DNA of 64,000 nucleotides, from positions 13,206,001 to 13,270,000 of the forward strand of contig CM102286.1 in NCBI GenBank assembly GCA_046563655.1, written 5' to 3'. Below, piece by piece: positions 6,242 to 62,600 of the stretch. The notes beneath the pieces are model-generated. The model saw nothing but the letters and a program-made list of their open reading frames with translations, made no database searches and had not been told where the DNA came from. Position 1 is the stretch's first letter. Each line of letters begins with the position of its first letter. Source of the stretch: Yuukianura sp. NJ FZ-2021 (lineage: Eukaryota). A program made the position numbers and the translations under genes.

Positions 6242-6685
6242 ATGGAATTGAATAAGCCCAGTTTACAGCACCAGAAAGTTACCAGTTATGAATACTTCCT
6301 GAACGAGGTCCTACGAACAGATCTCAAAAATGCTATGGAGCGGCGAGCATCCGTACAGAAAAAAATCTCAGCCTATACTCAACAGAAGACGATTCTGGAG
6401 AAGTTGACCTCCAGCCCAGAATTATCTAAGGATATTAGAACTAAAGTAGATCTGAGTTGCGATTTTTATGTAGATTCTTTAGTACCTAACTTAGACATGG
6501 TCGTAATGAATTTAGGATGCGGGACCTGGGTACAGGTAACTTCTGATGAAGCGATCCGAATTTGTGATCGAGAGATAGCCAACCTCACTAAAACTGTTGA
6601 GGTTATTTCTAAGCAGGAACTAGAACTGAAAGCCCACATTAATCTTGTGATTAATGGTCTACGAGAAATACAGAATCTAGAATGA
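6242..6685 (+). CDS. UXT: UXT (prefoldin alpha-like, ART-27), single coding exon, 147 aa
   Basis: KVTSYEYFLNEVLRTDL, TKVDLSCDFYV, LGCGTWVQVTSDEA and KAHINLVINGLREIQ match the UXT coiled-coil/beta-hairpin pattern. Confidence 0.9.
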   Translation: MELNKPSLQHQKVTSYEYFLNEVLRTDLKNAMERRASVQKKISAYTQQKTILEKLTSSPELSKDIRTKVDLSCDFYVDSLVPNLDMVVMNLGCGTWVQVTSDEAIRICDREIANLTKTVEVISKQELELKAHINLVINGLREIQNLE

Positions 6686-10207: not shown

Positions 10208-12180
10208 ATGTCCTTAACAGCTTCTGGGATGATTGACCGTGCTTCAGCCGAAATCTCCAAGTGTATTATGCGGATCAAGCGAAAAGACAATAAGAAACCA
10301 CCAGAAGTTCCACCAAAACCAAATTCCGATGTGCTTCGTAACGGTGTCGCAGTACTTCCAATGAGACACGGAACTGTTGGAGCCACCAGTAGCAATCCAC
10401 TCATCAACACGCTTACTCCGTTGACCCCTAGAAAGTTTACTAAAAAGTCTACGGCAAAAACCAAAGTAGTTTTGACCAGTGCTGACCAATTGTGGAAGGA
10501 TGATACTTTCCTCAAGCATTTCTTCCTGAACTACTTTCAAGGTACGGAAAAACTTGTACTGCCAGCAGTATCTCGGAAATGGAGAGACGTCGCTTATAGT
10601 TGTCCAGAGTTCTGGAGCGATTTGATTCCAGTGCTAAAGTGTAAAGAGCTAAGAAGGACGGTTCGAGTGGACGGTGGCCTTGGAGCTGGGATAAGAAGGC
10701 GTTTCTATGGTGGCGTTGTCAAGAGAGGGTAAGAGGTCAAAGGTCAAATCTAAAAAGGAAAGAAAAAGGCGGTATTTGAAATGTCTAAATGTTAATTTTA
10801 GATTCAATTCGTTGAAATTGGATTCAGCGACAGACGAAGACTCAGAAGACGTTCTGATCCACTTTTCTCAAGGGACGCAGCTCATTCAGACGCTGAAACT
10901 CTACTCTTCAAGTATCACTGACAAGGGACTGTATAATTTGATTGATCATTTGACTTCTCTCAAAGAACTGGAATTGAGTTCATGTAATGAACTCAGTGAA
11001 GATGGAATTGTGCAAGCTCTACCAAAGAAATTAGAAAAATTGGTCATCTACGATTGTATTCATGTCGCCGACATTGTCGTATCTTTTGTTGCCAAATCTC
11101 TCAACCTTGTCGAATTTTCTCTCCAAGTAAGTCAAAACTTATAAAAGTTTACTTGAAAAAAAAAAAACTTTGCTTTACTTTGAAATGTGATTCAAAATTG
11201 AATTTGATAAAAATTTGAATGGTTCCAGGCTTATCATGTGACTGACACAGCACTCATGTCGTTCAACCAAAAATCAAATGCAAACCTTACCACGTTGAAA
11301 TTAGACTCTTGCTGGGAACTGACCAATCAAACCGTCCTACATATCGGTAAAAGTTTCTTGAATTGAAACCGAGTCGAAACATTTCAAAAATTTTAAAATC
11401 AAGCCAGGAATGTAAATTCACAATTTCGCTTAATTAGAAAACTTTGAAAATTTAGTTTCAGGCCTCCCTATGCTTCGCCGGCTAAGTCTCTCAGGCTGTT
11501 CAAAAATTACTGATGAAGGAATCGAGATTCTAGCAGAAAATTTGACTCATTTGCGGTTGCTTGACCTTGGGTGGGGTCCAAGAATCACTGATGCTTCCCT
11601 GGAGTGTATTGCCTGCGACTTGATGTGTCTTGAGGAGCTTATACTCGACCGGTAAAATGATCCATCAAAAATTTAACTTCTTCTGAAAGGTTTCCTTGAA
11701 CTTTGACATTTCAATTTCAGCTGCACAATGGTAACAGATCTTGGCGTTGGATACTTGGCCACTATGTCCACGCTTCGGAAACTGTCTCTGCGGTGGTGTT
11801 CCATTCGAGATGCTTCTGTTCATCATATCGTCGGAATGCGGCGACTGCAGTATCTTTCCCTAGCAGGTAACATACGGAGCCTGTCATTTTACGCTTCCGG
11901 CTTCTTTTTACAAAATTTAGTGGTCCAGGAACCCCTGTGGGAGCCGCTTCATTGCTTTGCCTTAGTGAAACATTTACAATGTTTTCTTTTCTTTCTCTCT
12001 TTTTTGAAAAACTTCTTTTTTAAATTGTTTACAGGATGTGTCAACATTTCCCCGTCGACGTTTTGCTCTCTATCAAATCTAAGGAACCTCAAAGAACTGG
12101 AACTTACAAACTGTGGAGCCAATGCTCAAGTGATTCAGTTTCTTCGGAGTACGCTTAACTCATGCGCCGTCGTTGAGTAG
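10208..12180 (+). CDS. FBXL16: F-box/LRR-repeat protein 16-like, exons 10208-10728, 10802-11126, 11229-11346, 11456-11651, 11721-11866, 12035-12180 (483 aa)
   Basis: N-terminal [13 protein letters not shown]-box-like [13 protein letters not shown], LRRs [42 protein letters not shown] and LEELILDRC. Exons sum to 1452 nt. Confidence 0.9.
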
Positions 12181-13856: not shown

Positions 13857-15764
13857 ATGGCTGAAGTTGAAGCAATGGATGTGGACGAGAAAATCTACCA
13901 CAATTACAGTGTCTGGTTTTTTCCCGGAACGGCGACTACAAAAGGAAGGCTGCATTTGCGTCAAGTCGACTATAAGAGCCTTACGTTGGACAGACTTAAA
14001 CAACTGATCATTGAGGAGTACACAAACACAACCCGATCGGCAGGACAGGCGGAAACGATGTTACGCAGCGCTGATGATTTTGGTATAGGTTAAACATGTA
14101 AAGGAGTTTCCACGATGCTAATTACGTTGTTTGATTCAAATAGATTTGCTGTACAATGGAAACCTTCTGAAGAATACTACGGAGAATACTTTGACACTAA
14201 AACCAGAAGCTATTGTTTATGTCGTCAAGAGATCACCCGCTTCGTCGGAAAAGGAACCAGAACCATCCGCCTCTGCGCTCTCTGCTTCAATGATCAGGGA
14301 CCTTTCAATGTCACTTCGGGATGCCTTCTTACGAACTAATTTCATCAAAGTACTCGAGGTGAGTCATGTCAAATTGTTTACGTAAATTCAAGACTAGTTT
14401 CACTTGTCGTTCGTCATTTTAGAAACTGGCGGAGCCAAAAACGCTTCAAAAAGTTTTCGCTGCTGCCCCTGGGCTTGAAAAGGACTTAATGGGAATTGCC
14501 ATTATCCAGACTCCACAGCTCATGTTCCAAATCTCTGATCGCGAACTGTTGCAAAAGTAAGTGACTCTTGGCTACATATAAAGACAACAATTTTAACATT
14601 CCGTATTTACTTACTCTTAAGAGTTGCCATCACTCGGCCGTGGCTAATAGAAGCACTAAAACATATCGTGGCCACGGTGCAGGCGGAGAGGGTTGCCAAA
14701 CCGGGCCGTATCAGCGGTGCTTTGGCATCAGAATTTCTTAACACTGCTTTTTTGGATGGAGGGGAAGAAGATGATGATGACGATATGGACGATGACGCAG
14801 TAGAACCTCCGCGTACCCAGTCACAGCCCAACATGCATGGACCCATCACCCGGGAACAACTGGCCCAAGCCTTGAGTGCTCTGCCTAACATCGCTGGTAA
14901 ATTATGCTGCAAGTTTCGATTAGTCAAACGTTTCTCAAGTACCATCTTATCGTTTACAGGAATGCCATCCTCATCAACCAATCCATTTGCCAGTTTAATG
15001 AATCCAATCAATGCTCCTGGCCCATCTCGCCCTACTACAGCGCCAATACCAGCCACTGATAGCTCGCAAATTCTGAATCCCACCTTTCAACAGTTACTGC
15101 AGAATGCATTTAATGCAATGACTGCTTCAGGCGGTTCAACTGGAAACTTGGCAGCATCTCCACAGTCACCTCTTGCGGGATTAGGGAGTAATCCCGCTGC
15201 ACCGGTCGGAGCTGCCACTGCAGAAACATTCACCCGGGCACTTCAAATGGCAATGAGTCATCTAACACCAGACGACCGTGCAAATCAATTTGAACGCGTT
15301 CGCCGTAAGGACTGTGTTGTTAACTTATTTGAGTTTTGTCTTAAGTTTTTGTGTGAACTGTTTAATAATTTCTTTGTAATTTTAGAAATGGCTCAACAAG
15401 TTGTCGCTGGGAATCCATTGCCTGCTGCGACTGAACAAGCTCCAACAGCCACAGGATCGGCCACTACTCCAGCTACTGCCACTACTCCAGCATCAGAACC
15501 GAGACAATGGCCGCCCAGAGGTTTGTTATTATTTTCTGCTTTCTTACACTTTATTTGTGTTGATTGGTATCTTCATTGTCGAATTTCCTAAATTGGACTA
15601 ATAATATTGCAGACTTTAGTCGAGAGTTGGCTCAACTCCGAGAAATGGGAATTAATGATGAACGCCTGAGTATTATGGCGTTACGCGTTAGTGACGGGGA
15701 CGTCGAAACTGCCGTAGACCTCATCCTGTCCGGATGGGATGGAGCTGGAGCAGAAGAACCTTGA
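13857..15764 (+). CDS. UBL7: Ubiquitin-like protein 7 (N-terminal UBL, C-terminal UBA), exons 13857-14082, 14144-14358, 14423-14556, 14622-14896, 14960-15304, 15386-15520, 15613-15764
   Basis: UBL-like DLLYNGNLLKN, acidic tract, ITREQLAQAL, and UBA LAQLREMGINDERLSIMALRVSDGDVETAVDLI. Splice phases are consistent. Confidence 0.82.
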
Positions 15765-19600: not shown

Positions 19601-20512
19601 TTTTCGAAATTTGACGAAAAGCTTGATGTTCGCTTTTGGAGATTTTATAATTTCTAAAAATTCTTCATGCTTTTCGAAAGTTTCTCGCGAAGAGGTTAGG
19701 TCTCTATCGCTTTCCGTTCCTGAGATATAAATTTTCAAAATTTTATTTTAATTTTCAAAAACTTTAAAAATGCATGTTGGCTTTTGGAGATTTTATAATT
19801 TCTAAAAATTCTTCATGTTTTTCGAAAGTTTGTAGTGAAGAAATTAGGTATCGTGTTTCGTTCTCAAGATTTGTATTTTCAAAATTTTATTTTTATTTTA
19901 AAAAAATTAAAATCATTCCGCTTACGAGATTTTTAGTGTTTATTTATTTTATAAAAAAAAATTCCACATTGTTTTTTAGGCTGCATTGATGTGGGCCAAG
20001 AAGTACTGCGATAACAATCGGGACACTCCGGTCAAAGAGGTCATGGGTGAGTAAGAGTATTTCTCTAGAACTTGTTAATAAAAACTAATAAATCTAAGTT
20101 ATAATCCGTAATTTTTGCCTGAAATTAGGAAACTTCCTGGAGTACATTCAGTTTCACAAGATCCCGGCCAACGTTCTGATGAAGGACATCCATCCTCTGG
20201 GCGTGGTTCCTTACCACATTGTCATGAACGCTCTTGCATATCAGGTATAACTTTTCGATTCGAGTCTCACTGCAATGGATAATGGTTGGTTCCACACAGG
20301 CTGATCCGACGTCCGTTGACCCCGCCAAATTGTCACCCAACAGACCTAGGAGGTCAACCGGAGGTCGTTCCATGTCTGTCCAGAGTTCACTTGACCCTTA
20401 TGGTTCCAATACAACTCTGGCTTCCTCTGGAAGTAGCGAACTGGACGGAAGTGGACGCGTCTCTTCTGGAGGCGGAGAAAACAGTTCCCCGCAAGCACAA
20501 AGCTCGGGTTGA
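16638..20512 (+). CDS. gprs: BTB/POZ-BACK protein, serine-enriched protein (gprs)-like, exons 16638-16754, 16844-16929, 17007-17151, 17802-17913, 17975-18132, 18202-18333, 19980-20046, 20129-20244, 20300-20512 (~381 aa; start could be 16665)
   Basis: FENKTGLAEDMKFLASMPELCDVTFLVGDTREPVCAVKAVLAARS, IIEEFEPDVFRQLIEY, GVMNAADYYGLDELRKAC and a Ser-rich tail. Exons sum to 1146 nt. Confidence 0.87.
18471..19900. repeat. Tandem array of ~318-bp internally palindromic units (about 4 full copies plus a partial) in gprs intron 6; MITE/Helitron-like satellite
   Basis: Core CCATGGACTATAGTCCATGG recurs at 18943, 19261 and 19579 (variant near 18627). Units carry inverted arms ATATCTCGGGAACGGAAAGCGATAGA / TCTATCGCTTTCCGTTCACGAGATAT. 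Confidence 0.93.
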
Positions 20513-20653
20513 AATTGATGTCGCTTTAATTGTGAAATTATACTTTAATAACTGCTAGAGTTTAGAAATTCGGGAAAACCAAATCAATTATAGATTTATC
20601 TGATATTGTAATTTTGTGGCCCAAACTTAACGTTATAACTCCAAACATAAGAA

Positions 20654-23600
20654 CTAATCTCGACTCCACGATTGTGTATCCTCGGCATGAAGCATTAGTG
20701 AAGACAGCCTTGCTTTCAATGCTGTTGCTGTTGTATCATCCATGGAATCATCTACAGTTGACTGCTTAAGTTTGATCTTCAAGCACCGGATTTCTGTCAA
20801 GTATCTAAAAAAAAACAACAAATATTTTATGATCACATTCAAATATGCATACTTCTTGTATGAAAGTATCTACTCACTTGACATGGAGTACCGTTAAAAT
20901 CTCTGAGTCTGGACAGATTGACAAGGCGTAATTAATAAAGGATAAACTTGTGTCGGGGTTTAGTAACGGGGTATCAGTTTCATGCTTGGCTAAAGACGTA
21001 AAGATTTTCCATCCCGTGTTGTACTGTTTGGCCATTATGGTTCGGCAAATCTGCACCGCATGTTTGAAGTCTCCCTCAGCCAAAGCAGCATCTCCAGCCA
21101 TTTCCAAAACAATATTTTCAGCATCTTCCAAACTCATTCCGTCGATATGTAACAACACTGCAAGTTTGAGTAACTGTTGAATTTTCTTGTATCCACCTTT
21201 AGCTTTCTCCATTGTTTGTCGAATTAGCTCAAACTTGTCTTCACAAACTCTGACTGCAATAAACAAACAAATTGTTAGCAAATGTGCTTGTGCAAGTACA
21301 AGTTAGTACACTGCTAACTTGAACTTAAAACTTACCGGCGTATGGTAAAATATTGTTGCGAAAATCTTTGTTGATCAATTTGACAGCATCCAGAAGATCA
21401 AACATATAAGCGACCTTTGGTTCCTTTGGGTTTTGTATCAAGTTGAGGCACACTTTGCACAATTCTATGTCCGGATCAGCGTAGCTGGAGGAAGAATCAA
21501 AGTACATCTGAGCAGCTTCAATGATCATGACGAGTCCTTTGTGGTAATTGATTATGTGAAGGTAAAGAGCAAATGTTGAAGAATATTCGGCACTTGAGCT
21601 TCGACTAATACGATCAGATTTTCCAGAAGATTGCTCGGGTGGACTTTTCTCAAAGAAGTCTTTAGCTAATTTGATGATTTCGGCGGATCCACTCTTCAGC
21701 AGCGCGACAAAGTAGATCTGAAATAAACAAAAGATCGTACTATAGTTTTGAAATCACTTAAATTGATACAAAGCCAATATTTTCATCCCCAAACTATTTA
21801 CATTGTACAATGGCTGAGAAACGCTTCGATAATCGTGTCAACAATGGCCATTGCCCCAATTCCTACGTCGCCACAAATTAGAGTTTTAGTCACTGGAGGA
21901 ACATACTGATATCCAAAACTAATTAATCGATTCACTTGTTCAGAAGTCAATGGATGTTCCCACATTTTAGTGTTCATAGCAGGGCAAAAGATAAATGGTT
22001 TCTTGGCTTTGAGATCCCAAGCACGGATGACACAAGTCAGAAGATTGTCACAAAGTCCATTGGATATTTTACCAAGTGTATTGGCATCTAAAGGAGCTAA
22101 GATCATAATGTCAGCCCATTTGGCCAAATCAATATGAAGCACGGGGTCTCCACGACCATTCCACATTGACCATTCATCCGCATCTCGGAAGACTTTGACA
22201 GGAACGGGGTGAGATGAGGTAATTTCAGCGACATTGAAAAACTTCAAGGACGTTTCAGTTGGCACAACTCTAATTTCGCTAACGTGTCCAGTTGAAGCCA
22301 ATCGCTGGACAATCTCTTGGACTTTGATGGCAGCGACACTGGCTGTGACACCTAGTAAAACTTTTCGCAAGTTTGGCGTCGCCGGAGTACTTGCAGAAGA
22401 GCTTCCGACGTCTTCGGAAGCCTCCATGCTGAACCTCTTTGGTACAAAACTATTTCACTGAATGAATGAATGTTTGAAGATTGAAGAAACTGAAATTGAA
22501 AAAAGTTAACTTGAGGGGTATGTTGGTATTCAAGATTAAATGGCTGCTAATGGCAACCACCGGTGTGGCTGGTGCTTAAGGTTGATCTACGTAGCTTCTT
22601 AGTTCTTAGATGCTTTGGCAGTATCATCGGATGAAGTATATCCAAGTTTGTCCCAATCTTCCTTGGCCATAAGCCCATGGTCCATTCGGCACTGAAAGTA
22701 TTGCTGGGCCTCAACACGACATTTCTCGTTGACGTAATTGTTTGAATTGAGGCACGTCATGTAGGAAACCATGAACTTTTGGCAAACCCCCGTCCTATCC
22801 AGTGGGAAACTGCCTTTATCTGGGGGTGTTGGGGTAAATTGCTTTTGGCCAAAGGTCATGGAACTCATGCTGACTAAATTGTTCGTGGATAAAGGCAAAG
22901 TTCAGCAACTCGAGAATTGAAAACGTTCATCTGATCGCTGGAAATCGAATAACTTTGTAGTTGTACATGGACTGATGGATGATGGAAGATGGATCGATCA
23001 GATGTTTGCGAATTGCAAAAGAACACACAGTACCGTTATACCGTTATCCAGAATTTGCAAACTCATAGAATTTTACACAGCAGATTCCCGCCCCTCAAAA
23101 ACAAACAAAAAGCATGACTCACCTCGAAGCATTTCTCGATTTCAAATTCTTTGAACAATTTGTTTCTCATTTCCAAAAGATCTGACAGCAGCACCTTCCA
23201 ATCGTTGGCTTTTAGTGGAGGATGCCTAGAATTTGTCAAATAATTAAATAATTAAAATAGTTACAATTTAGTTTGCTTTAACACGGAAAAGAACTTGGTA
23301 AAACTTACATTTTAGCGGCACTTCGACATACCCCGACCAACAGTTCTTCAATTTCAGACGGGTTTTTGTCTTCCGAAATCTGCTTCACTTTGTCCACTGT
23401 TGAAGTGATGTTATACTTCTGAAGTAACTGTACAGCTCGAAAATGCGACTCCACATTGTCAATCAAACGCTGAAGCTTCTCCACACTTGGACTTTTCTTG
23501 ATGTAACCCTTGGCTGGAAGACAGCGTAAGATGGCCAGCACATTTTCCGTTTGATCAGTATTCTCGCACTGGTAGATACAATTATGAGCAAGCAGCATCA

Positions 23601-26600
23601 GTTCCTTGGGATCCGGGATGATGGGATCAAATTCGTCGTCCTTGGAGGCTTCAAAAATCTAGTACATGTAAAACAAGGTTAACAGATTTTGTATTTTTCA
23701 TTTGAAATGGATTGATTCCATACCTTTACTACCCGGCTCAAATCGGTTGTACAAATTGAAGTTAAATATTCATTTGTCAACTTGAAACTGGATCCTGCGA
23801 TTCTGTCTTCACATGTTGCAAGGAACGGCAAAACGTAATAACGGAAATCAGAGACCAGCGTTTCTTCCGCGGACTGAAATATAAAAAAATGCCAAACACT
23901 CGAACGTTAATCATTCTCTTTCAAAAGAAAACTAATTTACCTTAGAGAGTAGAAGTTTAATCCTTTCAAAATCTGGCAAAGATTCCAGCTTCCCCAGCGT
24001 CATGTCCTCCAACCCAACTTCGTATACCATCGTCTCCAATGTGTGTAAATCTTGGACCAGGGAATGTAACTCCTACAAATACATAAATACAACAATACAA
24101 CTCTGTACAACTTAATTTGACTAGTAACTGTAAAGTATTCGGGCATAATCCTTACCACAACGTTTCGTTCGACTCCAAGGAGGCCAAGATCCAGAGCATA
24201 GTTAATTATGCCGCTGAAACCTTCGATTTCCCTAACTCTTCTATCGTACCACAGATAAACATCTTCGGCTGTAGCTGTTGCGCTGGTATTAGGTTTGAGC
24301 AGGAACTTGATACACCAATCTTCTTCTCTCCGTACAATGTCTTTCCAAAATATCACTTTTCCGTCATCGTCTATTGTCGGCAGAAAATCTCTAGATTTGG
24401 ATAGTTTTAAATCATTTTGACACTACTGAACAATGACCATGTCAACATAGTTAACATAGGGACATTGGAACATATAAAAAGATAGTTAAAGTTAAGTAAG
24501 TGAATACTCACTTGTAATCGTGCGGAGACAATGTCTCTGGAAAATTAGAAATTATGTCGAGGTAGCTCTGAGAAACATCGTCCCAATGCTTGGATAACAG
24601 AATTTGGAGGCCGTTCGTATCACAGTGCTGAGCCATTTCCATGGCGGACTCAATCGTACTCCGGCTTCTTAATTTCCCATAAGCCTTACTATCGTAGCGT
24701 TCCTCAATCATCCTCGGTCCTCCAACGATTTCCTGAGCAAAGTAGTTTTCAAATTAAAAAATTGCTGTAAAAACAATACAAACACATTCATTACTTACTT
24801 CATAAGTGTCAAGGATCTCCATGAAATGCAAAAATCGTTCCCGGTAACGGAGTAGCCGAATCACCTCTGCATTATTTGGGTCGACTAGCGACAAGTATTC
24901 CTCCTTGGCCATATCCAGGTCATCGGGTTTCCAGAAAATAAACTTTCCCTTGTCTTTACCTGAAATGAGAAATGACAATGCAGCCACCACGTTACTTTTT
25001 GTACTTTTGTTAATAATTTTACCTTGACTAATTAAAACTGCGACTGTGATTTCCGTGCCCTTCAATCCAAACTTCAACAGTTCCCTGGCAGCGTCAATTG
25101 TGTCCGGCACACGATCCAGACATTCTTGTAGCACCCAATTGCGTTTGGTAATCTTTGCCTAGAAGAAACGAAAACTTAAAACTGAATTTGAAGTTATTAA
25201 GGTGAATTTTTTGTTGGCAGTTACCAGAAAATCTTTGATGGTGTGAATAGAAACAGGAGTTTTGGTCCATTGTCTCTGATAAACCAAATCTGAATCCAGC
25301 TTGTACAGTTTGGCTAAATCAAGGGCTTCTCCATACTCTTCTTGATCAATCCTGCGGTAGAACAACTCTTGTGGAGTGATATTCCGTAAAGTAAAAATCC
25401 TATGAGTATGTGTCCAACAAGGCAGTTTCTTTTTCCGTTTGCGTGGTGGTCGAAACGTTTCCATATCCGTGAACCAGAATAGCACTTCTTGAGCAGCTGA
25501 CTTTATCCATGATTCGCTATGTTCGGGAACGTCGTAGTTACCTTTAATTCTAACCTCAGCTTCAAGAACGAAGAAACTTTTGTCAAAACGAGAGGACACT
25601 CGTACAGGACTTTCAAACTGTTCCGGCACATCTCCCAGTAAATTCTTAGAAGGACATTCAGTAATTGGAATTAGCGTCACCGAACCATTCGTCCTTGAAA
25701 TAATCAGGCTCTAGAATCAGCAATCAGGAAGTGAGAATGAAGTTAGGAAAAAAGATGCAATAGCGGTTACCTCTTCGTCCCACCAATTGATATCATAAGG
25801 ATGAAAGATAATGTGATCCAATGTACGAAGTTGTGACTGGTTGAATGCGTGTCGCCACCTATAATTAAACCGTGAGTTTGCAGCGTTGTACTGGAACTGT
25901 GATTTGAGTGGCCAGAGATAGCTCAATTTCAATGAAGGAATCTTCCAAATTGAAATTGCTCCAGAAACATGAATCGCTGCCATTTGACTGCCACTAGGAG
26001 AAAGTACCATCTTCATAATTGATTCCTACAGAACATAATTCTCAGTCATCTACCAATGCATTATAAAGTAAGTGTTCAGAGTATAAAGCCAAAGTAAACC
26101 TGTTGCTGCTTTGCTGTTGTCAGTGTGAAGGCCATTTTCCATAGTCTCCTAGCATCCATACGGAATTCGTCCCCGTCCACTGTAAAGAGGATCCGATAGT
26201 ATGGGTAATCGAGAAGAAGCCGCCACGCTGAGACTCCATGCTGGACACTGGGCATCTATTAGTCAATTCATAAATTCCGTAATTCAAACCAAAAAGGAAT
26301 TATAGGCTTATCCGATGAGCAGTATTTACCTCGGTATTAGATTCCTGAAGAAGAGAACCTGTCACAAGAATCAATCCATGCGTGTCCGAATACTGAGCAT
26401 CAGTAACACCAAAGGGGTAGAACTGCCTAAAAGATCCTTCATGGTGGAACTTCATTTCATCTGGATTTGTTTGCCTGAAGGATTTCACAATTCCACGTTT
26501 GTCAACAGTTATCAATTCACTGCAACTAGAAACAGGACAAAGAATAAGCAACCCATGTGACTATGTTAAATCCTACAACAGATAAACAGCGACAACTTTA

Positions 26601-27410
26601 GCACTTACTAAATCGTTTTCTTCAGCCTCTCTTCTACAAAGAACATTCCCACCAAAGCTTTCTCAATTGAAAACACTAGCTTAGAAGGCTCTTCTTCCAT
26701 TGGTCCTTCGGCATCGAATCTTCGAACCGAGAACATTTGGGAGGCCATTATATCGAAACAAACAATGAGCCCGTTTGTAAAAGAGACTGCCAACAAAGAA
26801 GAATCCCTGGACCAAGCAAGTCGTCGGAAGTTCAGGAACTCATCGTGTATAACTGTTAAACAAAACATTCATTGTCGGATCTCGTTTATCAACAGGAATA
26901 AGAGTTGGCAATGAAAAAATCTGTAACGAACCATGCGTTTTTCCAAGTACGGAGCAAAAATTATCCCTGGATGATCTTGTTTCCAAGATGGTGTCTTGTA
27001 GGACTGCAATAATCTTTCCATCTGAAGCTACTGCATACTGCCAAGACGGTCCAGCCGACTTTATCCTGCGAAATGGAATGTACTATGTACAATACTCCTG
27101 TATTCCAAAAAATCCGTATATGCTTACCATAGCGCTGTTTCCGCTTTGGTCAAAGGCTTATTTCGAAATAAACTGGTTGGGTTCAAGTACGATAGTACTC
27201 CAGATTCGCAACTTGCAAGCGACGGAAATGGACTTGCTTCCTGAAACAACAGTAAGATTCGGCAATTTTATCATCCCAAGCTTAGTACAGGGTCTGTATG
27301 AATGAACAATTAATCGATTAAAAATAAGAATACATGAACAGTACCTCTTTATCTTCAATCCATTCAGCGCAGCATACAAGTTCGTACAGAATTGCATCCT
27401 CGTCCTCCAT
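20654..27410 (-). CDS. NBAS: Neuroblastoma-amplified sequence (NBAS/Sec39), about 20 exons, large intron 21718-23122
   Basis: Start MEDEDAILYELV. Also WQYAVASDGKIIAVLQDTILETRSSRDNF, RRLAWSRD, ITPQELFYRRIDQEEYGEALDLAKLYKLDSDLVYQRQW, LQECLDRVP, IISNFPETLSPHDY and WYDRRVREIE. Internal boundaries only partly resolved. Confidence 0.92.
21798..22427 (-). CDS. PPCDC: Phosphopantothenoylcysteine decarboxylase (HFCD flavoprotein), intronless, nested in an NBAS intron
   Basis: VLLGVTASVAAIK, catalytic His in VLHIDLAKWAD, APLDANTLGK, PAMNTKMW, and catalytic Cys motif KTLICGDVGIGAM. Confidence 0.96.
   Translation of the reverse strand: MEASEDVGSSSASTPATPNLRKVLLGVTASVAAIKVQEIVQRLASTGHVSEIRVVPTETSLKFFNVAEITSSHPVPVKVFRDADEWSMWNGRGDPVLHIDLAKWADIMILAPLDANTLGKISNGLCDNLLTCVIRAWDLKAKKPFIFCPAMNTKMWEHPLTSEQVNRLISFGYQYVPPVTKTLICGDVGIGAMAIVDTIIEAFLSHCTM
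22599..22868 (-). CDS. COX19: Cytochrome c oxidase assembly factor COX19 (twin CX9C), intronless, 89 aa, nested in an NBAS intron
   Basis: MSSMTFGQKQFTPTPPDKGSFPLD, twin CX9C, QCRMDHGLMAKEDWDKLGY. The ATG is at 22868; the ORF track start at 22898 is TTG. Confidence 0.95.
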   Translation of the reverse strand: MSSMTFGQKQFTPTPPDKGSFPLDRTGVCQKFMVSYMTCLNSNNYVNEKCRVEAQQYFQCRMDHGLMAKEDWDKLGYTSSDDTAKASKN

Positions 27411-34300: not shown

Positions 34301-37300
34301 TCAAACGGCAAGGAATGAAAACTAAGTTATAGCAATAAATGCTGCTGGGCTCAATGGTTTCTAGAACTTCATAGTTTTTGAAAAGAACTAATTTGGGAAA
34401 AGTGAGAACGATTTGGTTCATTTTTGAGTATACTCATGATACAGTTGGTTATTTGGTATCATTGCAACACTAAATTTCAATTAAGTTCTGATTTCCACTT
34501 TCACCAAACCACTTTCCCCTGCAACTCTGTTGAGAAACAAGCAACTGTTTCCCTGGAAGCCAGAAAGCTTCAAGGAGAAAGCAGAAGTTGATTAAATGCA
34601 AATGTGTGGTTGGAGGGAAGATACCTTAAATTTCTCCATCATTTCAACAACAGAGGCAAAAGTTGAAAATGTTGAGGGGGAGAATTCTATGAATAATAGT
34701 TTCAAATTTTGTAAATTTTTTGACAAATTGAAAAACCGTGTTCGATTTTCCACCCTTACAAATCCCGGTTTTGGAAGAGTTAAGCTTATTCAAAATCTAT
34801 GAAAAAATATGTAACAAAAACAATATGTAAAATTTCGAGAAAAATTTCTCGACGTTTTCCAACAACTGCAATTAAGTTGTAATTTTTTGGATTTCCAATT
34901 TATACTTTTATTTTTAACTTTAGTGCGTCATTGTGAATGACGTAATGACAACCTTGGTTTCGCAGTAAAAAAAAAACATTTTGAAAGCTTCACATTACGA
35001 CCTTTTGTTAACGCCACTAACCTGCGTCAATACATGTATTGTCTGTATTCAAAAATTCGAAAGTTATAATTTTCGAAATTAGTCATTCTCTAAGTCCAGC
35101 GTTGTAAACAATTATCGGATTTCCAAAACTATTTACACTTGATTTTTTCAAAACTAATCTAACCTCACCAATACATACCAAAATGAACAGAAAATTTACC
35201 ATATTTCTACAATTCCTCGTACTTGGATTAGCCTTTGGAGGTAAAGTGATGGACGAATACGAAGCGATTGTCAAAATTTATGAATCTAAAGGGACGCTCA
35301 ACTATGGCGAAAAGTGTAACTACGATGATCAGCGGAAACACGTTGAACTGGAAAAAACCCTGCACCAGAAATTGGTCAATCTGACAACAAACGAAACTCT
35401 AACTGAAATTGTTCGAGCCTTTGAAAAATTTACAAAATCCGTTACTTTACCACTCTGCAACTTCAACGCCTACTTGCAATGTAACAGAGCTACCAACACA
35501 TGCGACTGTTTCGTCCCTTCAGAATCTGGAATTCCTCTGAACACTACTACTACTGTTGTCAAGGCCAACGGCACCAACACTTGTGAACTCACTGCTGGGT
35601 CAACTTGTGACCCCGCGAGGTCAGCATCCGTCAAATGCGCAGGCCCTTCCATTTGCAGAATTGCTGAAAATGTTAAAGAGGAATGCAACATTCGAACTGC
35701 GATGATCATCATGTTAAACAAGTTCCCGAATTATGACGACGTTACTCTCCTCCGTATTGGATACAACTCATTGATTGGTGGAATGTGCAAATGCATAACC
35801 ATAGCACAGTAATATCACAGTGTACAACATATTTTTAAAAAATGTTACAAAAATGAAAATAAAAAAGTAAAGATAGACCAAAACCAATTTTTACAATTAT
35901 GTGTTTTCAAAATTGACTCTTGGCATGGCCAATTTTTTTTTAAATTACTAAATTCGCGTTTTTGAAATACAGATATATGTGAGGGTAGGTTTTCATTATT
36001 TGATGAATGAAAATTCGTATTAAATCCCTGGGATTAGCTGCATTAGCACTTGAGTAGACATTAGTTAGACATTCACCCAAGTTAAACATTTGTTCCGGTC
36101 GGTAAGGTTTCCTAAAAGCACCAAACCAAAATCGATCCGCATCTTTTGCAAAGAAATGAAACAAAAACGAAACGCAGCGCTCAGGAGGAGCAGAAACTCC
36201 TAATTTGAAACTGGGCTGGTGTAGTCTTTATAGTCTAAAATTACAAGTTTCGTTTTTAGCGGGTGACTATTGATTCACAATTTGTTTTTGTTTTATTTAA
36301 CAGGTAGGAGGGCTAGAAACTCTGACAATTTAGAAGACTTTGATATTGGTAAGTCAATTTCTAACATTACTCATGTGAATTATTACACAATTTATGAAAA
36401 ATGAAAACCAAAAGTTCATAATTTACTGCAACTCATCAATAAGTATTACTTTCTCTGAGAAAAAAGGTAAGAAAAACGGGAAAACTGAAAAAAATGAAAG
36501 AGAAAGTGCGTTCTCGAGTGCAGTTTGAAAAATAATTACCCCGTAACTAGTGCAGAAAATTCAAATCAAATAGACCCGCCGAAAAATATCGACCACAAAC
36601 TTGTCAATGACTAATATAAAATATCCTAAATGCAGAATTTCAGATACTCGGAGAAGTTCAAAAAACGATCTATACTATACAACACTTTTGCTCTTGGATA
36701 CAAAAGCCAAGCTTTCTCTACGCGATGCGTTTAAAATGCTTTGCACTCACTTTTAAAATTTTGGTTTGTATGCCTATCATTAGCTTTTATAAATAACCGC
36801 CCAATTTGTGTTCCTTTCGTCATAAAACTTTTACTCAAATGACACGTTACTTGTTAACTACTAATTGTAGCACATCGTTTCAGTTTTAGTTTCAACTGTA
36901 TACTTTGGATGGTTCAAACAAAATTTACAAAGGCGGGAAATTTCAAATTTTTATGAAGTAGTTTTGAACGCATCGAAAAGTGTTATTGAACATTGAACCT
37001 TTTGTTTTCTCCAAAGTATTTTCTTTGTTTAGCTTTAAATCTGTCGCTTGTCTTAATGCTCCTGCAACTTTCTTTTCACCCTCTCCTTCCCCTAACTTGG
37101 TTTCCTTATTAGAGATTCCGGAAGCATGAGAGGAAATGGCTTATGTAGATTGAAAGAAAATATGAGCCGAGGTTTTGGAAATGGTTTTCCCGCCAAAGTG
37201 AGGTGGGTCATATTGATGAGGAGAAATGGGCTGTAAGAAGATGACACGATCCCACCACCACGTCCCACGTTAGGCCCCACCATCCTACCACCAAGGAAAA

Positions 37301-46300: not shown

Positions 46301-49300
46301 AGAAAGTGAACACCTTGTCAAAGAGAGATCTCTTATCCCTTTGAAGATCTATTCACTCTTACTACTCATTTCCTCACTCTCACACTGTTTTCCTCACTCA
46401 TGCTCATCTCCTCGCTCCTATACTCTTTCCCTCACACACTAATTTCCCCACTCTCATACTCTTTTCCTCACTCATGCTCATTTCCTCACTCTCATACTCT
46501 TTTGGTCACTCATGTTCATTTCCTCACTCATACGCTTCCTGATTACTTATTTCCTCATACTCTGTTTTTCACTCATTCTCCTTTCCTCACATCTAATCAT
46601 TTCCTCTCATACTGTTTTCCGAGCATGCTCATTTCCTCGCTACCTTTTTGCATACCTTTTCCCCACTCTCATACTAATTTCTCGATTATACTCTTTCTCT
46701 CGCTCTATTCATTTCGTCGCTCACATTCCTCCTCAGTTAGTATACTATTTTCCTCTCTTTCGAACTCTTTTCTTCACTCTCGTTACTCATTTCTTCACTT
46801 TCCTCGTACTCTTTTCCTCCCCTGCTCATTTTCCATCTCACTTTCACCGTGGCATTCTTCTTTGCAACTCTTTTTTTCATGTTCCCAGCTTCCCCCTCTT
46901 CTGCCGCGTCTTTTCACGCTCCATTTATTAACATCACTTTCTACATATCTCTTTTTATACCCACTCTCCTGTCTCCAACCTCACTCTGACTCCATAAAAT
47001 TATCATTGTCTTTCCAATTTAACTTTTTATTCAAACCACTTTCTCCTACGCTCCCGTCCAAGTAACTCAAGTCAACGACTCCAACAATTAGTTTTTCGAT
47101 CTCAAAGTTACGAAAAGTAACCACTTTTAGGTAAAACGGATTCGACGTATTATGGCAATAGAGAAACGAAAACTTTTTACCCAAACTGTGTTGGAGTTTG
47201 ATTTAAAAAAGCAGGAATATTAAAGTGGCATTGGAACTTTCAATTTTTGAAGGTTCCTGTAACTCTGCCGCAACAGCATGAGTGAAGACGCTCCATAAAT
47301 TCTTATGATTATTTATCTTTTATTCATGAACAAGGGGAGTTCGTATTTTTCTTAAGAGTGAACATCAGAGGGGAAAGGAAGGAGCGGAATAAAGAAAACA
47401 ATTTTTGAAGGTTCCTGTAACTCTGCCGCAACAGCATGAGTGAAGACGCTCCATAAATTCTTATGATTATTTATCTTTTATTCATGAACAAGGGGAGTTC
47501 GTATTTTTCTTAAGAGTGAACATCAGAGGGGAAAGGAAGGAGCGGAACAAAGAAAAAAATCTCGTAACATTTGAAGCATTGTTATCTTCCGCATTTTACA
47601 AGTTTACAAGCTTAAAGTACTGTTTTCCAGGAAAATTCAACATAACAGGATTTTAGATTTTTCCCCTAACTAACCCATTCCAATCAGAAACTAACGTGAG
47701 GGTTTGACTTTTAAAAAAATGCGGTTCACTCCCATTTCTTTCTTTTTTTTTGAATTGCTCATCCCTGAAAATGTTAAGGAGAAAGTAAAATGTATGGAGA
47801 GAATGCATAACTATGTGCATAACTATGTGTTCAGCTGTCGCTTGTTAACACACTTTCCCCGTATACATTAACCACCCCATCCAAATGCAAATGAGGATTC
47901 TACAGAGGAAAAGCAGTGTTTCATGCCAAGGGTGAAGGAGAAAGAAACTTTGGCGTCGGTTCCTAATAGGAGATTACGAATGAAGGAAAAGCTTCTCTCT
48001 GATCACACACTTCACTAACATTCAGCACATCCAGAAAGTATTTCCCCACACTATGCATCAGAACTGTGTCTGCAACATGAAAGATCTCCGATGTTGCACA
48101 CGTACCACAAAAGTAATATTAACACATCCTTTGTCTGGTTACATTTTCATTTAAACTGTGACTTATAGCCACAAGATCTCCAGCCACCAAAGAAACTTTG
48201 TCAATGTCAACACCACACATGAACATCTTCATTACACTTATTCATGAAAGTCACTTTTCCCACAGAAAACTTGAGGTTCATCAGAGACAATGATACCGGC
48301 TCCAAGGAATTTTTTCTTCAAAAACACTTCATTCAAAATTCAGAATCTTCGTAAAGAATCAAAAGCACAACAAAATTTCTCCAAAATTTCTTTCTCAAAA
48401 TGTTGAATTTGAACTTCAAAAGTCAACTTGAGTTTTACGGATAAAAAACTGAAAACGTATTTCTAAAAAAACTCATTCACTTCAACTGATGCATCACGAA
48501 ATCCCTAAAAGTAACTTCGCATAAAATCTTCAAATTTTCCCCCAAAAACATTAAGGTACAACAATGAATAAAATGTCAACGTAGAAAGAAACGCCATAAC
48601 GCCATGTTACCAAATTTAAGTCGTATTACCTAAAAATTCCAAAATTTCAAACAGAACAATGTTTCCCCGCTCTTTTTTCACGATAGGCAGCAATGGTACG
48701 AAAAAAAAACGATAAGTTTCCTGGGCAGTAGTGAGTACGTTGGGATGAAATTGAAGTTGTTTCCTGTTTTATGACAAGCGGATATCTGAAGTCAATGTCC
48801 GCCATACACAAAAGAAATAGTGTGATAGTAAGGCTGAAGTGAAAGCACCGTGCGTAAGGCATGCCAGCAGAAGTCTCCGGGTGACTCCAGAACACTTCCC
48901 CATACGAGTAGTAGTCCAAAGTCTATTTCTTTCAATTGTCAAAATAGAGTCGTTTGAGAAGTGATCTCATCATTGGCTTAGTTTCCAATTCCCTCAGGAA
49001 AAAGACTCCTGCCCCATAAAGAAAGTTCGTAAATTCCAAGAGCCATAACATATCCTACTCTCCCTCCTGCTTAAACTTCCATTGTCTCCCTCAACCCAAT
49101 CCCAATTTCAATACAATCTCTGATGTGTCTTAATGATTTCTCCAACACCGACTTTTTTCGAAATCACGCCCTCAAAATCCCGCCAAATTCAAAAATTCAA
49201 TTTCTCCTAAAAACGTTTCAAAAACATTGCTTTTCCTGTTTCACGAAAAAGCTAAACCTTCACCAACGCGATTAACAAACATTTAGAATAATAGAAAGCA

Positions 49301-59682: not shown

Positions 59683-62600
59683 TCAGTTGATTTGGAAAGA
59701 AAGTGGTGGATTGTATTTCCAAACGAGTTGAGAAAACTGAACTTGTCTTTTCGTATCTCCAACGTTCCCGCCTCCACTCAAGCGAGTGGATCCATCCTTC
59801 CGGGTCAACTTCAAATCAACTTTGTAGAGACCAGGAACAAAGTAAATGAGTGAAACTGAGTGTTGGAACGACTTTCCTGGCAGAATCTACAGAAATGTCA
59901 TAACGATTACTTAAAAAAGTGAAAACTTTCACACATGCTGTCACAAGAAACACAAGAAAAACTAAAAGTCGCACTCAACTGGCACCAAAAAACCAATAAA
60001 AATCAATCCAAACATAACAGTAACAGGAAACCCAACAAACTAGCCATTTTGGTTGAGCAATTTCGAAACTACGGTTAGTTGGATTCAAACGCGAAAAGAA
60101 AGAACTCAAGCAGTGAAAAAAGACACGAAAAAAAATTCAGCAGCAACATGAACACAAAAAAAATTTACCAGCGACACTCGGATACCAAGGAAAAAATTGT
60201 ACCGGAAGAGGCAACATTCGGACACTACAAAAATCGAGTCGGAAAAAAATCGAGCGGGAAAAAATCGTACAGGAAGAGGCAACACTCTGACACCAAAAAA
60301 TCGAACGGGGAAAAATCGTACAGGAAGAGGCAACATTCGGGGATACCAAAAAATCGAGCCGGAAAAAATCGTGCAGGAAGAACACCAATCGTGCACCAAA
60401 AAATCGAGCTAAAAAAATAAAAAAATCGTGCAAGGAGAGGAACATTCTGGCACCAAAAAAATCGTGCCGGGAGAAGCACAATCTGATGTGCACCAAAAAA
60501 TCGAGGAGTGCCAGGGACACCAAAAAAAGCGACCAGCGACATTCGAGCACCCAAAAAATGAAAAGTATGCCAAACACTTTTTTTTGAAAGAAAAGTTTGG
60601 CCTGGATTTTGGGTTCAAAGCACAAGCGAATTAAAATTCTCACGGTTTCCCGGAGAGGTTGAGAAAAGATGCTATTTCTTACCTCTACGATTTCCACTGA
60701 ATCGTTTCCGATGACAGCTACTCTGGAGTCGAGGCGATAGTTATACCTCTCGTTCAAATAATCTTGGTAGAATGCCAGGGAGAGATGAACATCTTGTAAT
60801 TCTTCTCGCAAGTGATTCTTCAAACATACGTCTACATTTATCTTCTCTCCCGCCTCAAAGTGCATTTCCTCCGTTTTGGCCAACTCTCCATTTATTGCAA
60901 TTTCTAAAGGAAACGAGAGAAAAGAAGCCACTTAAGCCTCAACCTTTATCCTCTTCTATCAATGCTGTTCCACTTAAGACTCTTACCCCATTCAATCGGT
61001 GACACCGTTGCTAATTGAACCATTTCAGGCGTAAGACGAATTCCTTCCAGAGTTGCTTTTCCAGAACAATCAGGTAGGGTCCACTTAACGTCAACATTCT
61101 TTACAATATGCTGACAGCAGACTGCTTCTTCTTTTCCTAAAAACATGTTGAAATATAATCAAACCCCACAAGTAATCAAACTCAAAATGTAGAAAATTAT
61201 TTTCAAATGTTGTCTCACCTTTCTCTACGTCAGCTACGGAGCACTTCTCAAGAGGAACCGGAATTCTACAAGTTTCCAACTTCTCGACTAATATTTGTTT
61301 CGTACCCGCATACTGTAGCTCCATTTCATGTTGAGTGGCATTGCAAATGTCAAGTACAATGTAGAACTGAGAAGGTCTAGAATGACAAAAAAAGTTGTGA
61401 ATCAGCCAGCGATGACAAAAACACGCAAGTAAACTAATGCCACAGACTTACGATTCGCCAGGTAATGTATCCCATTTTGTGATGAAGAGAGTTGGAGCAA
61501 CTTCAACGTTAAGAGCAATACCGCAGTGTCTGAAATGTCCGCTCTGTCTTCCAGGACCTCCAGTGTATTTCAGTTTCAGAACAGCCTCATACGTCTGAAA
61601 CACAAAATCACAAAAACATTATAAAATAAATTTTTTTAATAATTTTATAGTTAAATTAAATTAATGAAATTGACCTTGACCTTACCTTGTTGTAATTGAT
61701 CAGCGAAACTTTTGGAGTAGCAGCGGAGAAGGAATTGAAGCTTCCCCCACTTTTACCACTAGACCTAAAAGCAAAATCAAGGTTAACTAAAGAAAATCAT
61801 AGTTAAATTCGGTGGAAATTTTTGAATGTTCAAAATTTTCATACTTTGATGCTACAGATTCCGTTCTCTTGGCCGTTGACCTGAGCCGTTCCGAAATGGC
61901 ACCTAATCTCGATGGAAGGGAACTTGGTCCATCACCAATCGGTTGTGTGTTTCCCATGGGCATGGACGAGGTACTGCTTGTATCACAGGCTTGCAGGTCC
62001 GGTTGACCAATAAACTCTCCTGCTCCATAGATATACACCGTAAAACTGGCAGAACATCCTGGTTGGATTGGCAGTTGAGCTTGAAGGTTGTCATCACTCC
62101 AACTAAAAATCTCACTTATTCTGGCATCAATTCTGGAATCAATGGAGATTTCCAGGGATTCAATTGGTACTTTTCCCGTATTGATCAAAGCTACGCTACA
62201 CTCTTGACTTTCGCCCATCAACAAGGACACACTAGCACTCGTAACAATGGAATCGGAGAAGGAGCTGAAAAATTCTGATTTAGGTTTGGACGTTTCCACC
62301 TACAACAATAAAATCACAAAATTGAAAGAAAAAAATCGTCATATTTTTATGAGAATATCTTTTTCCAAAATCCAATTACCGCAAGACACGGGAGTGCAGC
62401 GACGACCTCAATATCAATATGTGGACACTTCATGGCACGAATGTTTTTCAGTCGTATATTTGATTTTACACCAAGTGTGTAAGTAGAGTACCCTAAAAAT
62501 ACAAAAAGTTACTCAAAATTTTAACAAACAAAATTCCTTTTACTTTTGAAATTGTGAAATTCAATTCTGTACCTAATATTCTGAGATTTCCGGGTCCCAG

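Follow-up and report, generated by a model that had tools for sequence, protein, structure and literature searches.

A putative COX19-PPCDC dicistronic gene nested in the sense orientation in an NBAS intron of Yuukianura sp.

The COX19-PPCDC pair and related systems

The closest described counterpart of the locus reported here is CG42496-Ppcdc of D. melanogaster. According to supplement file 2 of PMC4528330, FlyBase gives the two genes one extent and classes them as 'all di/polycistronic', with 18 nt between the CG42496 stop and the Ppcdc start; the supplement has the locus as a 1.47-kb unit. The sequence-only reading of the present DNA had put the fly orthologues next to each other, and on these entries they are adjacent. 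Hayden and Bosco (2008, PMC2276209) described, in the CG30290 transcript, a 94-aa twin-CX9C uORF, and their paper includes single ESTs from Aedes and the crab Carcinus maenas that carry a CX9C uORF together with a flavoprotein mORF. Counted by eye, 14 of 19 positions of the CG30290 uORF match the small ORF found here over COX19 residues 11-29. The COX19-PPCDC dicistron is therefore not a new type of system: it was published in 2008, and FlyBase carries it as an annotated locus. Because this annotated locus is joined by two-ORF ESTs extending out to a decapod crab, the pairing is ancient in Pancrustacea; documented on one transcript in flies, in mosquitoes and in a crab, it ranks with the oldest dicistronic genes recorded from animals.

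Other arthropod CHCH uORF genes, namely CG9865/PIG-M and Mocs2-CG42503, as described in PMC2276209, also have an mRNA on which a small conserved CX9C protein, probably mitochondrial, precedes an enzyme unrelated to it, but they join other protein pairs, and CG9865 has three uORFs. A paper on plant CHCH uORFs (PMC2075485) was set aside, the group it treats in the part concerned being another one and not COX19-PPCDC. In the literature searches only PMC2276209 and PMC4528330 proved relevant to the pair, and neither NBAS nesting nor dicistrons of springtails turned up as the subject of a paper.

Two further classes invite comparison. Same-strand nested intronic genes resemble the present unit in being complete within a host intron and in the sense orientation, whereas the unit here has two cistrons and no canonical poly(A) hexamer, its second stop codon being 80 nt short of the acceptor. 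The SL trans-spliced operons of nematodes, tunicates and some crustaceans likewise have two genes per primary transcript, but there 3' processing and trans-splicing cut up the pre-mRNA so that each mature mRNA is monocistronic. In contrast, the fly and crab ESTs, as given in PMC2276209 and PMC4528330, represent mature RNA with both ORFs.

The locus in Yuukianura has the same two proteins as the fly locus, in the same order and on the same strand, with a conserved upstream peptide and no gene between. It differs in its spacer, which at 171 nt lies outside the range of short spacers, and in its nesting in an NBAS intron, seen here and apparent in one relative only. The fly locus has been annotated from transcripts, whereas this one was recognised in genomic sequence. 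Its local peculiarities are the sense nesting in NBAS, the longer spacer and the absence of a canonical poly(A) hexamer; the locus extends the pair to a non-insect, probably springtail-like arthropod, and shows that the two genes can be housed, in the sense orientation, within a larger one.

The NBAS intron and its two genes

The window analysed is a stretch of 64,000 nt from contig CM102286.1 of Yuukianura sp. NJ FZ-2021, and the features of the locus are collected in Table 1.

Table 1. Features of the host gene and the nested pair (positions in the window)
Feature	Position	Strand	Basis
Host gene, NBAS/Sec39 homologue (approximate extent, homologue-aligning part)	20732..27082	-	Pfam and tblastn
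Host exon upstream of intron, 103 nt, ends ...EKCFE	23123..23225	-	TTCTAG acceptor ends 23226; GTGAGT donor starts 23122
Host intron with both nested genes, 1405 nt, phase 0	21718..23122	-	GT...AG borders: donor GTGAGT from 23122, acceptor TTTCAG to 21718
Donor-to-COX19 stretch, 254 nt, presumed promoter and 5' leader	22869..23122	-	Position
COX19 ORF, 89 aa + stop, intact	22599..22868	-	CHCH domain, twin CX9C, named matches
Intercistronic spacer, 171 nt	22428..22598	-	Between COX19 stop and PPCDC start
PPCDC ORF, 209 aa + stop, intact	21798..22427	-	Pfam Flavoprotein, homologues
PPCDC-stop-to-acceptor tail, 80 nt, AT-rich, presumed 3' UTR and poly(A) region	21718..21797	-	Position
Host exon downstream of intron, begins IYFVALL	21336..21717	-	Acceptor and tblastn

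The identity of the host is given by two Pfam domains that follow one another in successive minus-strand exons: Nbas_N matches lie in host exons at 27082-25717, the Sec39 domain starts at 24753-24508, and Sec39 positions 579-688 lie at 21302-20874. When 10 of the 48 listed NBAS-like proteins were used as tblastn input, all of the long ones (8/8) were collinear with the host gene. The matches of four proteins (P0217, P0222, P0224 and P0248) stop at about 23120, by the end of the upstream exon, and those of three (P0214, P0220 and P0224) begin at 21741-21720, close to the start of the downstream exon. One homologue, P0224, is contiguous across the intron, since its residues 827-865 align to 23236-23120 and its residues 863-981 to 21723-21343. 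The nested pair thus lies wholly between a donor and an acceptor whose splicing brings together consecutive residues of the NBAS protein. The neighbouring NBAS introns are 83 and 82 nt long; the intron concerned, about 17 times longer, is a length outlier because of the two genes inside it, its segments from 5' to 3' being 254 + 270 + 171 + 630 + 80 nt.

The small upstream ORF is predicted to encode a mitochondrial COX assembly factor. Residues 29-62 match the Pfam CHCH domain (PF06747; cut-off 27.2 bits) with a score of 30.5, and the translation contains a twin CX9C motif (C29-x9-C39 and C50-x9-C60). Identity is 71% with a named COX19, that of Tenebrio molitor, and 76% with the best match, which is unnamed. 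Nearly all of the functionally named matches go by 'cytochrome c oxidase assembly protein COX19'; a few are merely 'CHCH domain' or 'hypothetical', and none is another named CHCH protein.

The downstream ORF matches the Pfam Flavoprotein domain (PF02441) over residues 22-203 (E = 2.3e-30), and among its 2285 homologues those with names are phosphopantothenoylcysteine decarboxylase. H98, the motif at P149-W156 (PAMNTKMW) and C185 are all present, and we take them to be the active-site His, the PxMNxxMW motif and the catalytic Cys, as in AtHAL3a and human PPCDC. In an alignment of 14 sequences these positions are invariant except for W156, which is nearly so (90% or more), and each of the 75 invariant columns is kept in the ORF (75/75). 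The sequence-only reading had named the host and both guests, and had placed the guests in an NBAS intron in host-sense orientation; the domains, matches, borders and collinear homologues bear it out on all of these points, and its intron and ORF coordinates, all on the minus strand, are as given in Table 1.

Since both ORFs are uninterrupted and contiguous, as in a copy of an mRNA, they might be unexpressed retrocopies of a dicistronic mRNA inserted into the intron. This is extremely improbable. Both ORFs are complete, the twin CX9C motif and the invariant PPCDC columns have been kept, and the sequence past the PPCDC stop has no A-run. A relative whose proteins are 64-70% identical apparently has the same arrangement, NBAS exon included, which is unlike a decaying copy. 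In annotation, the COX19 and PPCDC ORFs should both be called genes.

One mRNA or two

By homology, the best reading is that a single mRNA would carry both ORFs. The locus is probably a local version of the pancrustacean COX19-PPCDC dicistronic gene, a counterpart of CG42496-Ppcdc that is nested in the sense orientation in an NBAS intron and expressed as one mRNA. Several lines of evidence support this reading. The two intact ORFs run in one direction and have no other gene between them; the fly locus and the Aedes and crab ESTs have both ORFs on a shared mRNA; and the pair recurs both in metagenome contigs and, apparently, in the nearest relatives.

The metagenome comparison set comprised 80 loci obtained with a PPCDC alignment, the listed matches being all at 58% identity or less. 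In at least three of the 80 loci examined (L001, L002 and L011), which are insect-like by their best matches, COX19 immediately precedes PPCDC in the same orientation. Two of the three contigs are about 1.05 kb long and hold just both ORFs with short flanks. The spacers in this group are 1, 2 and 25 nt and are therefore too short for a promoter. In L011 the pair follows a mitochondrial bL21 gene and not NBAS.

For the nearest relatives, linkage was judged by equal contig size, which is not proof of one and the same contig. On this basis, PPCDC and COX19 are found on contigs of 17309 nt (P0001/P0203), 3967 nt (P0002/P0207), 2414 nt (P0003/P0210) and 5717 nt (P0005/P0208), and on further equal-size contigs of 5928, 8659 and 2985 nt. 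Equal-size pairs of about 1 kb (1042 nt, P0042/P0159; 936 nt, P0023/P0196) were excluded from the count, a chance coincidence being likely at that size. An NBAS exon also occurs on a contig of 17309 nt, the size common to P0001/P0203. Linkage of the pair to NBAS outside this locus is suggested in this one relative only. Two relatives count against the dicistron, since their contigs are too small for both complete ORFs (PPCDC P0004, 909 nt; COX19 P0122, 739 nt); these contigs may be fragments or monocistronic transcripts.

The proposed course of expression would be as follows. A promoter in the first 250 nt or so of the intron would give one capped mRNA of roughly 1.1-1.3 kb, and COX19 would be translated from the 5'-proximal AUG. 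After termination, a fraction of the 40S subunits would scan the AUG-free 171-nt spacer and reinitiate at the PPCDC AUG. The 3' end of the mRNA would fall in the 80-nt tail, where a poly(A) signal of non-canonical type would be used. Promoter position, reinitiation and 3' end are all steps that we infer. No poly(A) hexamer occurs in the 254-nt leader, which has four ATGs (positions 8, 57, 155 and 193) and one TCAGT (position 148). The PPCDC start is the first AUG past the COX19 stop and has A in position -3 and G in position +4. The COX19 ORF contains nine ATGs, and this number argues against leaky scanning and for reinitiation. Reinitiation after an ORF of 89 codons is, however, generally held to be inefficient, which counts against the mechanism proposed. 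Its inefficiency after such ORFs is also discussed in PMC2276209.

The spacer contains no ATG and neither AATAAA nor ATTAAA, but has two TCAGT words, at 22493 and 22461, the one 64 nt and the other 32 nt ahead of the PPCDC start codon. These cues, pointed out in the sequence-only reading, are all present, yet none of them goes beyond chance: among 5000 dinucleotide shuffles of the spacer, 1295 (26%) were free of ATG and 539 (11%) had at least two TCAGT. By eye, there is no DPE at the canonical distance from either TCAGT, a matching word being 3 nt off-register. An IRES-like or other structure in the spacer was also considered and was rejected, because the predicted RNA fold is not unusual (z = -0.86; 32 of 200 shuffles fold as well). 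No Rfam family was found in 20500-24000 at E <= 0.1.

Another explanation is that the widened spacer acquired a promoter of its own, so that PPCDC would be mainly monocistronic and COX19 would be on a short or a dicistronic mRNA, either as separate mRNAs or as a mixture. The length of the spacer, about 10 times that of the fly and some 7-170 times that of the insect-like contigs, speaks for this and against a shared mRNA, since a promoter could fit. The two TCAGT words, which are initiator-like, point the same way, although their number is no more than chance would give. FlyBase has such mixtures for many fly dicistronic loci, only 45 of the 159 annotated ones being apparently exclusively dicistronic in the account of PMC4528330, and the PPCDC on the 909-nt contig is 73% identical to that found here. 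On the other side, the spacer has no AATAAA or ATTAAA with which to end a separate COX19 mRNA, which also counts for the dicistron; the fly locus is classed as entirely di/polycistronic in the supplement of PMC4528330; and linkage is kept in every closest relative with comparable contig sizes. Separate mRNAs are therefore rather unlikely, though of the alternatives to a dicistron they deserve the most weight.

Whichever reading holds, the intercistronic distance of this pair is not fixed, and COX19-PPCDC offers a natural case for studying the translation of a second cistron, by termination-coupled reinitiation at 1-25 nt as against scanning over 171 nt.

The 3' end and the host transcript

The dicistronic reading meets a difficulty at the 3' end. 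The minus strand contains no AATAAA or ATTAAA between 23961 and 20549, and in the 80-nt tail (GC 0.28) the sole poly(A)-like word is the weak variant AAAATA. The absence of a canonical hexamer between PPCDC and the host exon leaves the 3' end of the proposed mRNA unexplained and counts against this reading.

One possibility is that the unit lacks an internal promoter and that it is derived from NBAS transcription via intronic polyadenylation or intron retention. Unit and host are on the same strand, COX19 starts 254 nt past the donor, PPCDC stops 80 nt before the acceptor, and an NBAS exon is apparently linked to the pair in the relative with the 17309-nt contig. This origin is nonetheless highly unlikely: roughly 1000 NBAS codons upstream would block the translation of COX19 by scanning, and elsewhere the pair works without NBAS, as in L011, where it follows bL21, and in the fly, where the supplement of PMC4528330 gives it as a unit of its own.

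The formation of the 3' end of the COX19-PPCDC mRNA and the splicing of the NBAS intron might compete at the same 80 nt or so, such that the two outputs would be mutually exclusive for any one transcript, and selection protecting the host might have kept the poly(A) signal weak. This idea is speculative and unlikely. It is suggested by the sense orientation, the absence of AATAAA and ATTAAA, the distance of only 80 nt from stop to acceptor, and the fact that the pyrimidine/U-rich tract of the acceptor is the sole plausible downstream element. If it were true, any transcript could yield either the ER-trafficking gene or the two mitochondrial/CoA genes but not both. Selection for the arrangement would also be in keeping with the apparent linkage to NBAS in a relative. 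In any case, the locus offers a natural setting in which to ask how the mRNA of a sense-nested gene can be terminated while the host transcript is left whole.

The NBAS intron and its nested genes

The sequence-only reading had placed COX19 and PPCDC within one intron of NBAS, both co-oriented with the host, and this observation was fully confirmed, since the borders, the ORFs, their order, and their strand all match the sequence.

Features of the window around the nested pair and elsewhere
Feature	Coordinates	Strand	Detail
NBAS exons, Nbas_N match	27082 to 25717	minus	
NBAS exon, match to the start of Sec39	24753-24508	minus	
Host exon upstream of the intron		minus	ends ...EKCFE; then donor GTGAGT at 23122
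Non-coding stretch, host donor to COX19 ORF		minus	254 nt
COX19 ORF	22868-22599	minus	89 codons
Intercistronic spacer, COX19 to PPCDC		minus	171 nt
PPCDC ORF	22427-21798	minus	209 codons
AT-rich stretch, PPCDC stop to host acceptor		minus	80 nt, GC 0.28
Host exon downstream of the intron		minus	begins IYFVALL, directly after acceptor TTTCAG ending 21718
NBAS exon, match to Sec39 positions 579-688	21302-20874	minus	
Polyprenyl synthetase fragment	806-1336	minus	Pfam, 2.5e-23
Prefoldin subunit	6242-6685	plus	Pfam, 6.8e-13
Leucine-rich-repeat exons	10695-12180	plus	Pfam

The first ORF matches Pfam CHCH (30.5 bits; curated cut-off 27.2), its translation contains Cys-x9-Cys twice (C29/C39 and C50/C60), and the named proteins among the 84 found by a protein search are almost all COX19 (e.g., Tenebrio molitor, 71%). 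The second matches Pfam Flavoprotein (2.3e-30), and the named matches among its best 120 of 2285 are phosphopantothenoylcysteine decarboxylases, the best being that of the springtail Orchesella cincta (59%), with other matches at 70-74%. The source of the window is thus placed among arthropods and, tentatively, with springtails or their close kin. In an alignment of 14 sequences, PPCDC His98, PAMNTKMW (149-156), and Cys185, which we take to be residues with catalytic roles, occupy invariant columns except for W156, which is nearly invariant. Given these domain matches and conserved motifs, both genes are intact. That they are dead retrocopies is therefore very hard to credit, the more so because the arrangement recurs in a relative.

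Homologues of the host were obtained by a library search with exon 21302-20874 (48 proteins), and ten of these NBAS-like proteins (the eight longest, P0215, and P0212) were compared with the window by tblastn. The long proteins are collinear with it in all eight cases. In the homologue P0224, residues 827-865 align with 23236-23120 and residues 863-981 with 21723-21343; this continuity means that the 1405-nt intron splits adjacent NBAS residues. The small upstream host exon was matched by four of the ten proteins and the start of the downstream exon by three, the others skipping these poorly conserved stretches flanking the intron. The adjoining host introns measure 83 nt (23308-23226) and 82 nt (21335-21254), and further short introns are marked by in-frame stops inside the long NBAS match at 26025-24511; the nested intron is long because it holds two genes.

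On the minus strand from 20874 to 19900, NBAS homologues of around 2000 aa align no further than about 20732, and an AATAAA cluster then follows at 19948-19891; the C-terminal region, long in the homologues, may here be absent or very diverged. Elsewhere in the window, the long ORFs at 14539-15591, 35108-35812, 46310-47065, and 60137-60931 gave no Pfam match.

An arthropod dicistron and its distribution

Hayden and Bosco (2008, PMC2276209) described in the D. melanogaster CG30290 transcript FBtr0071672 an upstream ORF (uORF) for a 94-aa conserved peptide with a twin CX9C, followed by a main ORF (mORF) for a "putative flavoprotein enzyme". The pair reaches in their paper as far out as an EST of the crab Carcinus maenas (DY308116, "Pancrustacea"), and in their supplement one EST supplies both ORFs in Aedes (DV368308) and likewise in Carcinus. 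Over residues 11-29 of the window COX19, a count by eye gives 14 identities in 19 positions with the fly uORF printed there, and the printed mORF contains the PPCDC motifs. The FlyBase "Rule-Benders" supplement (PMC4528330, file 2) gives CG42496 and Ppcdc one extent (2R:21691295..21692764), with the entry "all di/polycistronic", "unrelated", "18 nt bet. stop/start".

On the basis of these two sources, the fly dicistron is annotated knowledge and its Pancrustacean antiquity is published. The adjacency of the Drosophila orthologues, suggested in the sequence-only reading, thus agrees with the FlyBase listing, and the idea of an ancient pairing was already in print. The dicistron proposed from sequence stands as the best reading of the locus but not as a discovery: this arthropod dicistron is ancient and has already been described and annotated, and the locus is a further example. 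Three features of the locus deserve mention: the pair is nested within NBAS in the sense orientation, its spacer is about ten times as long as that of the fly (171 nt versus 18 nt), and it lacks a canonical poly(A) hexamer.

Linkage in relatives was scored when the closest PPCDC and COX19 proteins lay on contigs of identical size and source, coincidences at around 1 kb being discarded. Such PPCDC/COX19 pairs are P0001/P0203 (17309 nt, JGI), P0002/P0207 (3967 nt, ENA, two contigs each), P0003/P0210 (2414 nt, Logan), P0005/P0208 (5717 nt, JGI), P0011/P0127 (5928 nt, Logan), P0091/P0177 (8659 nt, Logan), and P0080/P0189 (2985 nt, Logan), which is strong circumstantial evidence for linkage, short of proof of a single contig. 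When NBAS exon 21302-20874 was used as the query, two proteins matched; the better match, P0205 (64% identity), comes, like P0001 and P0203, from a JGI contig 17309 nt long. The NBAS nesting, or at least a tight linkage, is therefore probably common to a relative with 64-70% identical proteins.

Scanning metagenomes with the alignment of PPCDC sequences gave at least 80 loci, and comparison with the window COX19 (E <= 1e-3) found a match in three of the 80 listed: L001 (COX19 40-273, PPCDC 275-847, spacer 1 nt), beetle-like by its best matches (Nicrophorus, Atheta), and the insect-like L002 (105-365, 391-933, 25 nt) and L011 (1281-1556, 1559-2113, 2 nt). Contigs L001 (1055 nt) and L002 (1062 nt) contain the two ORFs alone with short flanks. 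In L011, which may represent either genomic DNA or a transcript made by read-through, a mitochondrial bL21 gene (185-769, same strand; Pfam Ribosomal_L21p, 8.6e-23) precedes the pair by 512 nt, so the association with NBAS is not universal. Four further animal-like loci among the best listed matches have non-arthropod best matches (L003, sea urchin; L004, cnidarian; L010, fish or cnidarian; L012, bivalve) and no COX19; three have less than 190 nt upstream, too little to judge, and in L010 none was found in the 470 nt upstream of PPCDC.

Expression of the pair

By homology, the whole unit would be carried by one mRNA, and we consider it fairly probable that this mRNA arises from a promoter in the intron and that COX19 and then PPCDC are translated from it by reinitiation. 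The 5'-proximal AUG would serve COX19 and the next AUG past its stop would serve PPCDC; the nine ATGs within the COX19 ORF make leaky scanning unlikely. Stop-start distances of 1-25 nt in the fly and the insect-like contigs suggest termination-coupled reinitiation there. Here, a 40S subunit would scan 171 AUG-free nt up to the PPCDC AUG, the context of which is good (A at -3, G at +4). The promoter would lie in the 254 nt following the host donor, where ATGs occur at positions 8, 57, 155, and 193, so that either transcription starts no more than about 60 nt before the COX19 AUG or small uORFs are present in the leader. Expression from the NBAS promoter instead is improbable, as some 1000 NBAS codons would then precede COX19.

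The main rival, possible although we doubt it, is that PPCDC has its own promoter in the widened spacer, with or without a dicistronic form. In its favour, of the 159 dicistronic loci annotated in the fly by FlyBase, only 45 appear to be exclusively dicistronic (PMC4528330), and the contigs of two close relatives are too short for both ORFs. The sequence-only reading had described the spacer correctly (no ATG, AATAAA, or ATTAAA; two TCAGT, which lie at 22493 and 22461), but as evidence these cues are within chance: among 5000 dinucleotide shuffles of the spacer, ATG was absent in 1295 and two or more TCAGT occurred in 539. The spacer has no unusual RNA fold (z = -0.86), and window 20500-24000 matches no Rfam family.

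As to the 3' end of the presumed single mRNA, neither AATAAA nor ATTAAA occurs on the minus strand over the 3.4 kb from 23961 to 20549, which covers the nested unit and adjoining NBAS exons, and the 80-nt tail past the PPCDC stop has only the weak variant AAAATA. L011 ends in A15, 20 nt beyond AATAAA, and this A-run begins about 78 nt past its PPCDC stop; a 3' UTR of about 80 nt is thus not unusual for PPCDC, and it is the window's signal that is non-canonical. A strong signal in a sense-nested gene would truncate the host, and the weak one may therefore be kept by selection. Minus-strand hexamers resume from 20549 and cluster densely at 19948-19747.

COX19 (22873-22866) and PPCDC (22432-22425) share on the minus strand an identical 8-mer, TCAGCATG, i.e., the same five bases plus the start codon; a match of five bases is expected by chance in about 1 of 1000 cases, and the word may be initiator-like or a start context common to both genes. 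In the presumed promoter region, the 8-mer ATAACGGT is repeated in perfect tandem at 23047-23032 (minus strand), around 165-180 nt before the COX19 AUG, with an ATCGAT core near 22995, about 35 nt downstream of the tandem.
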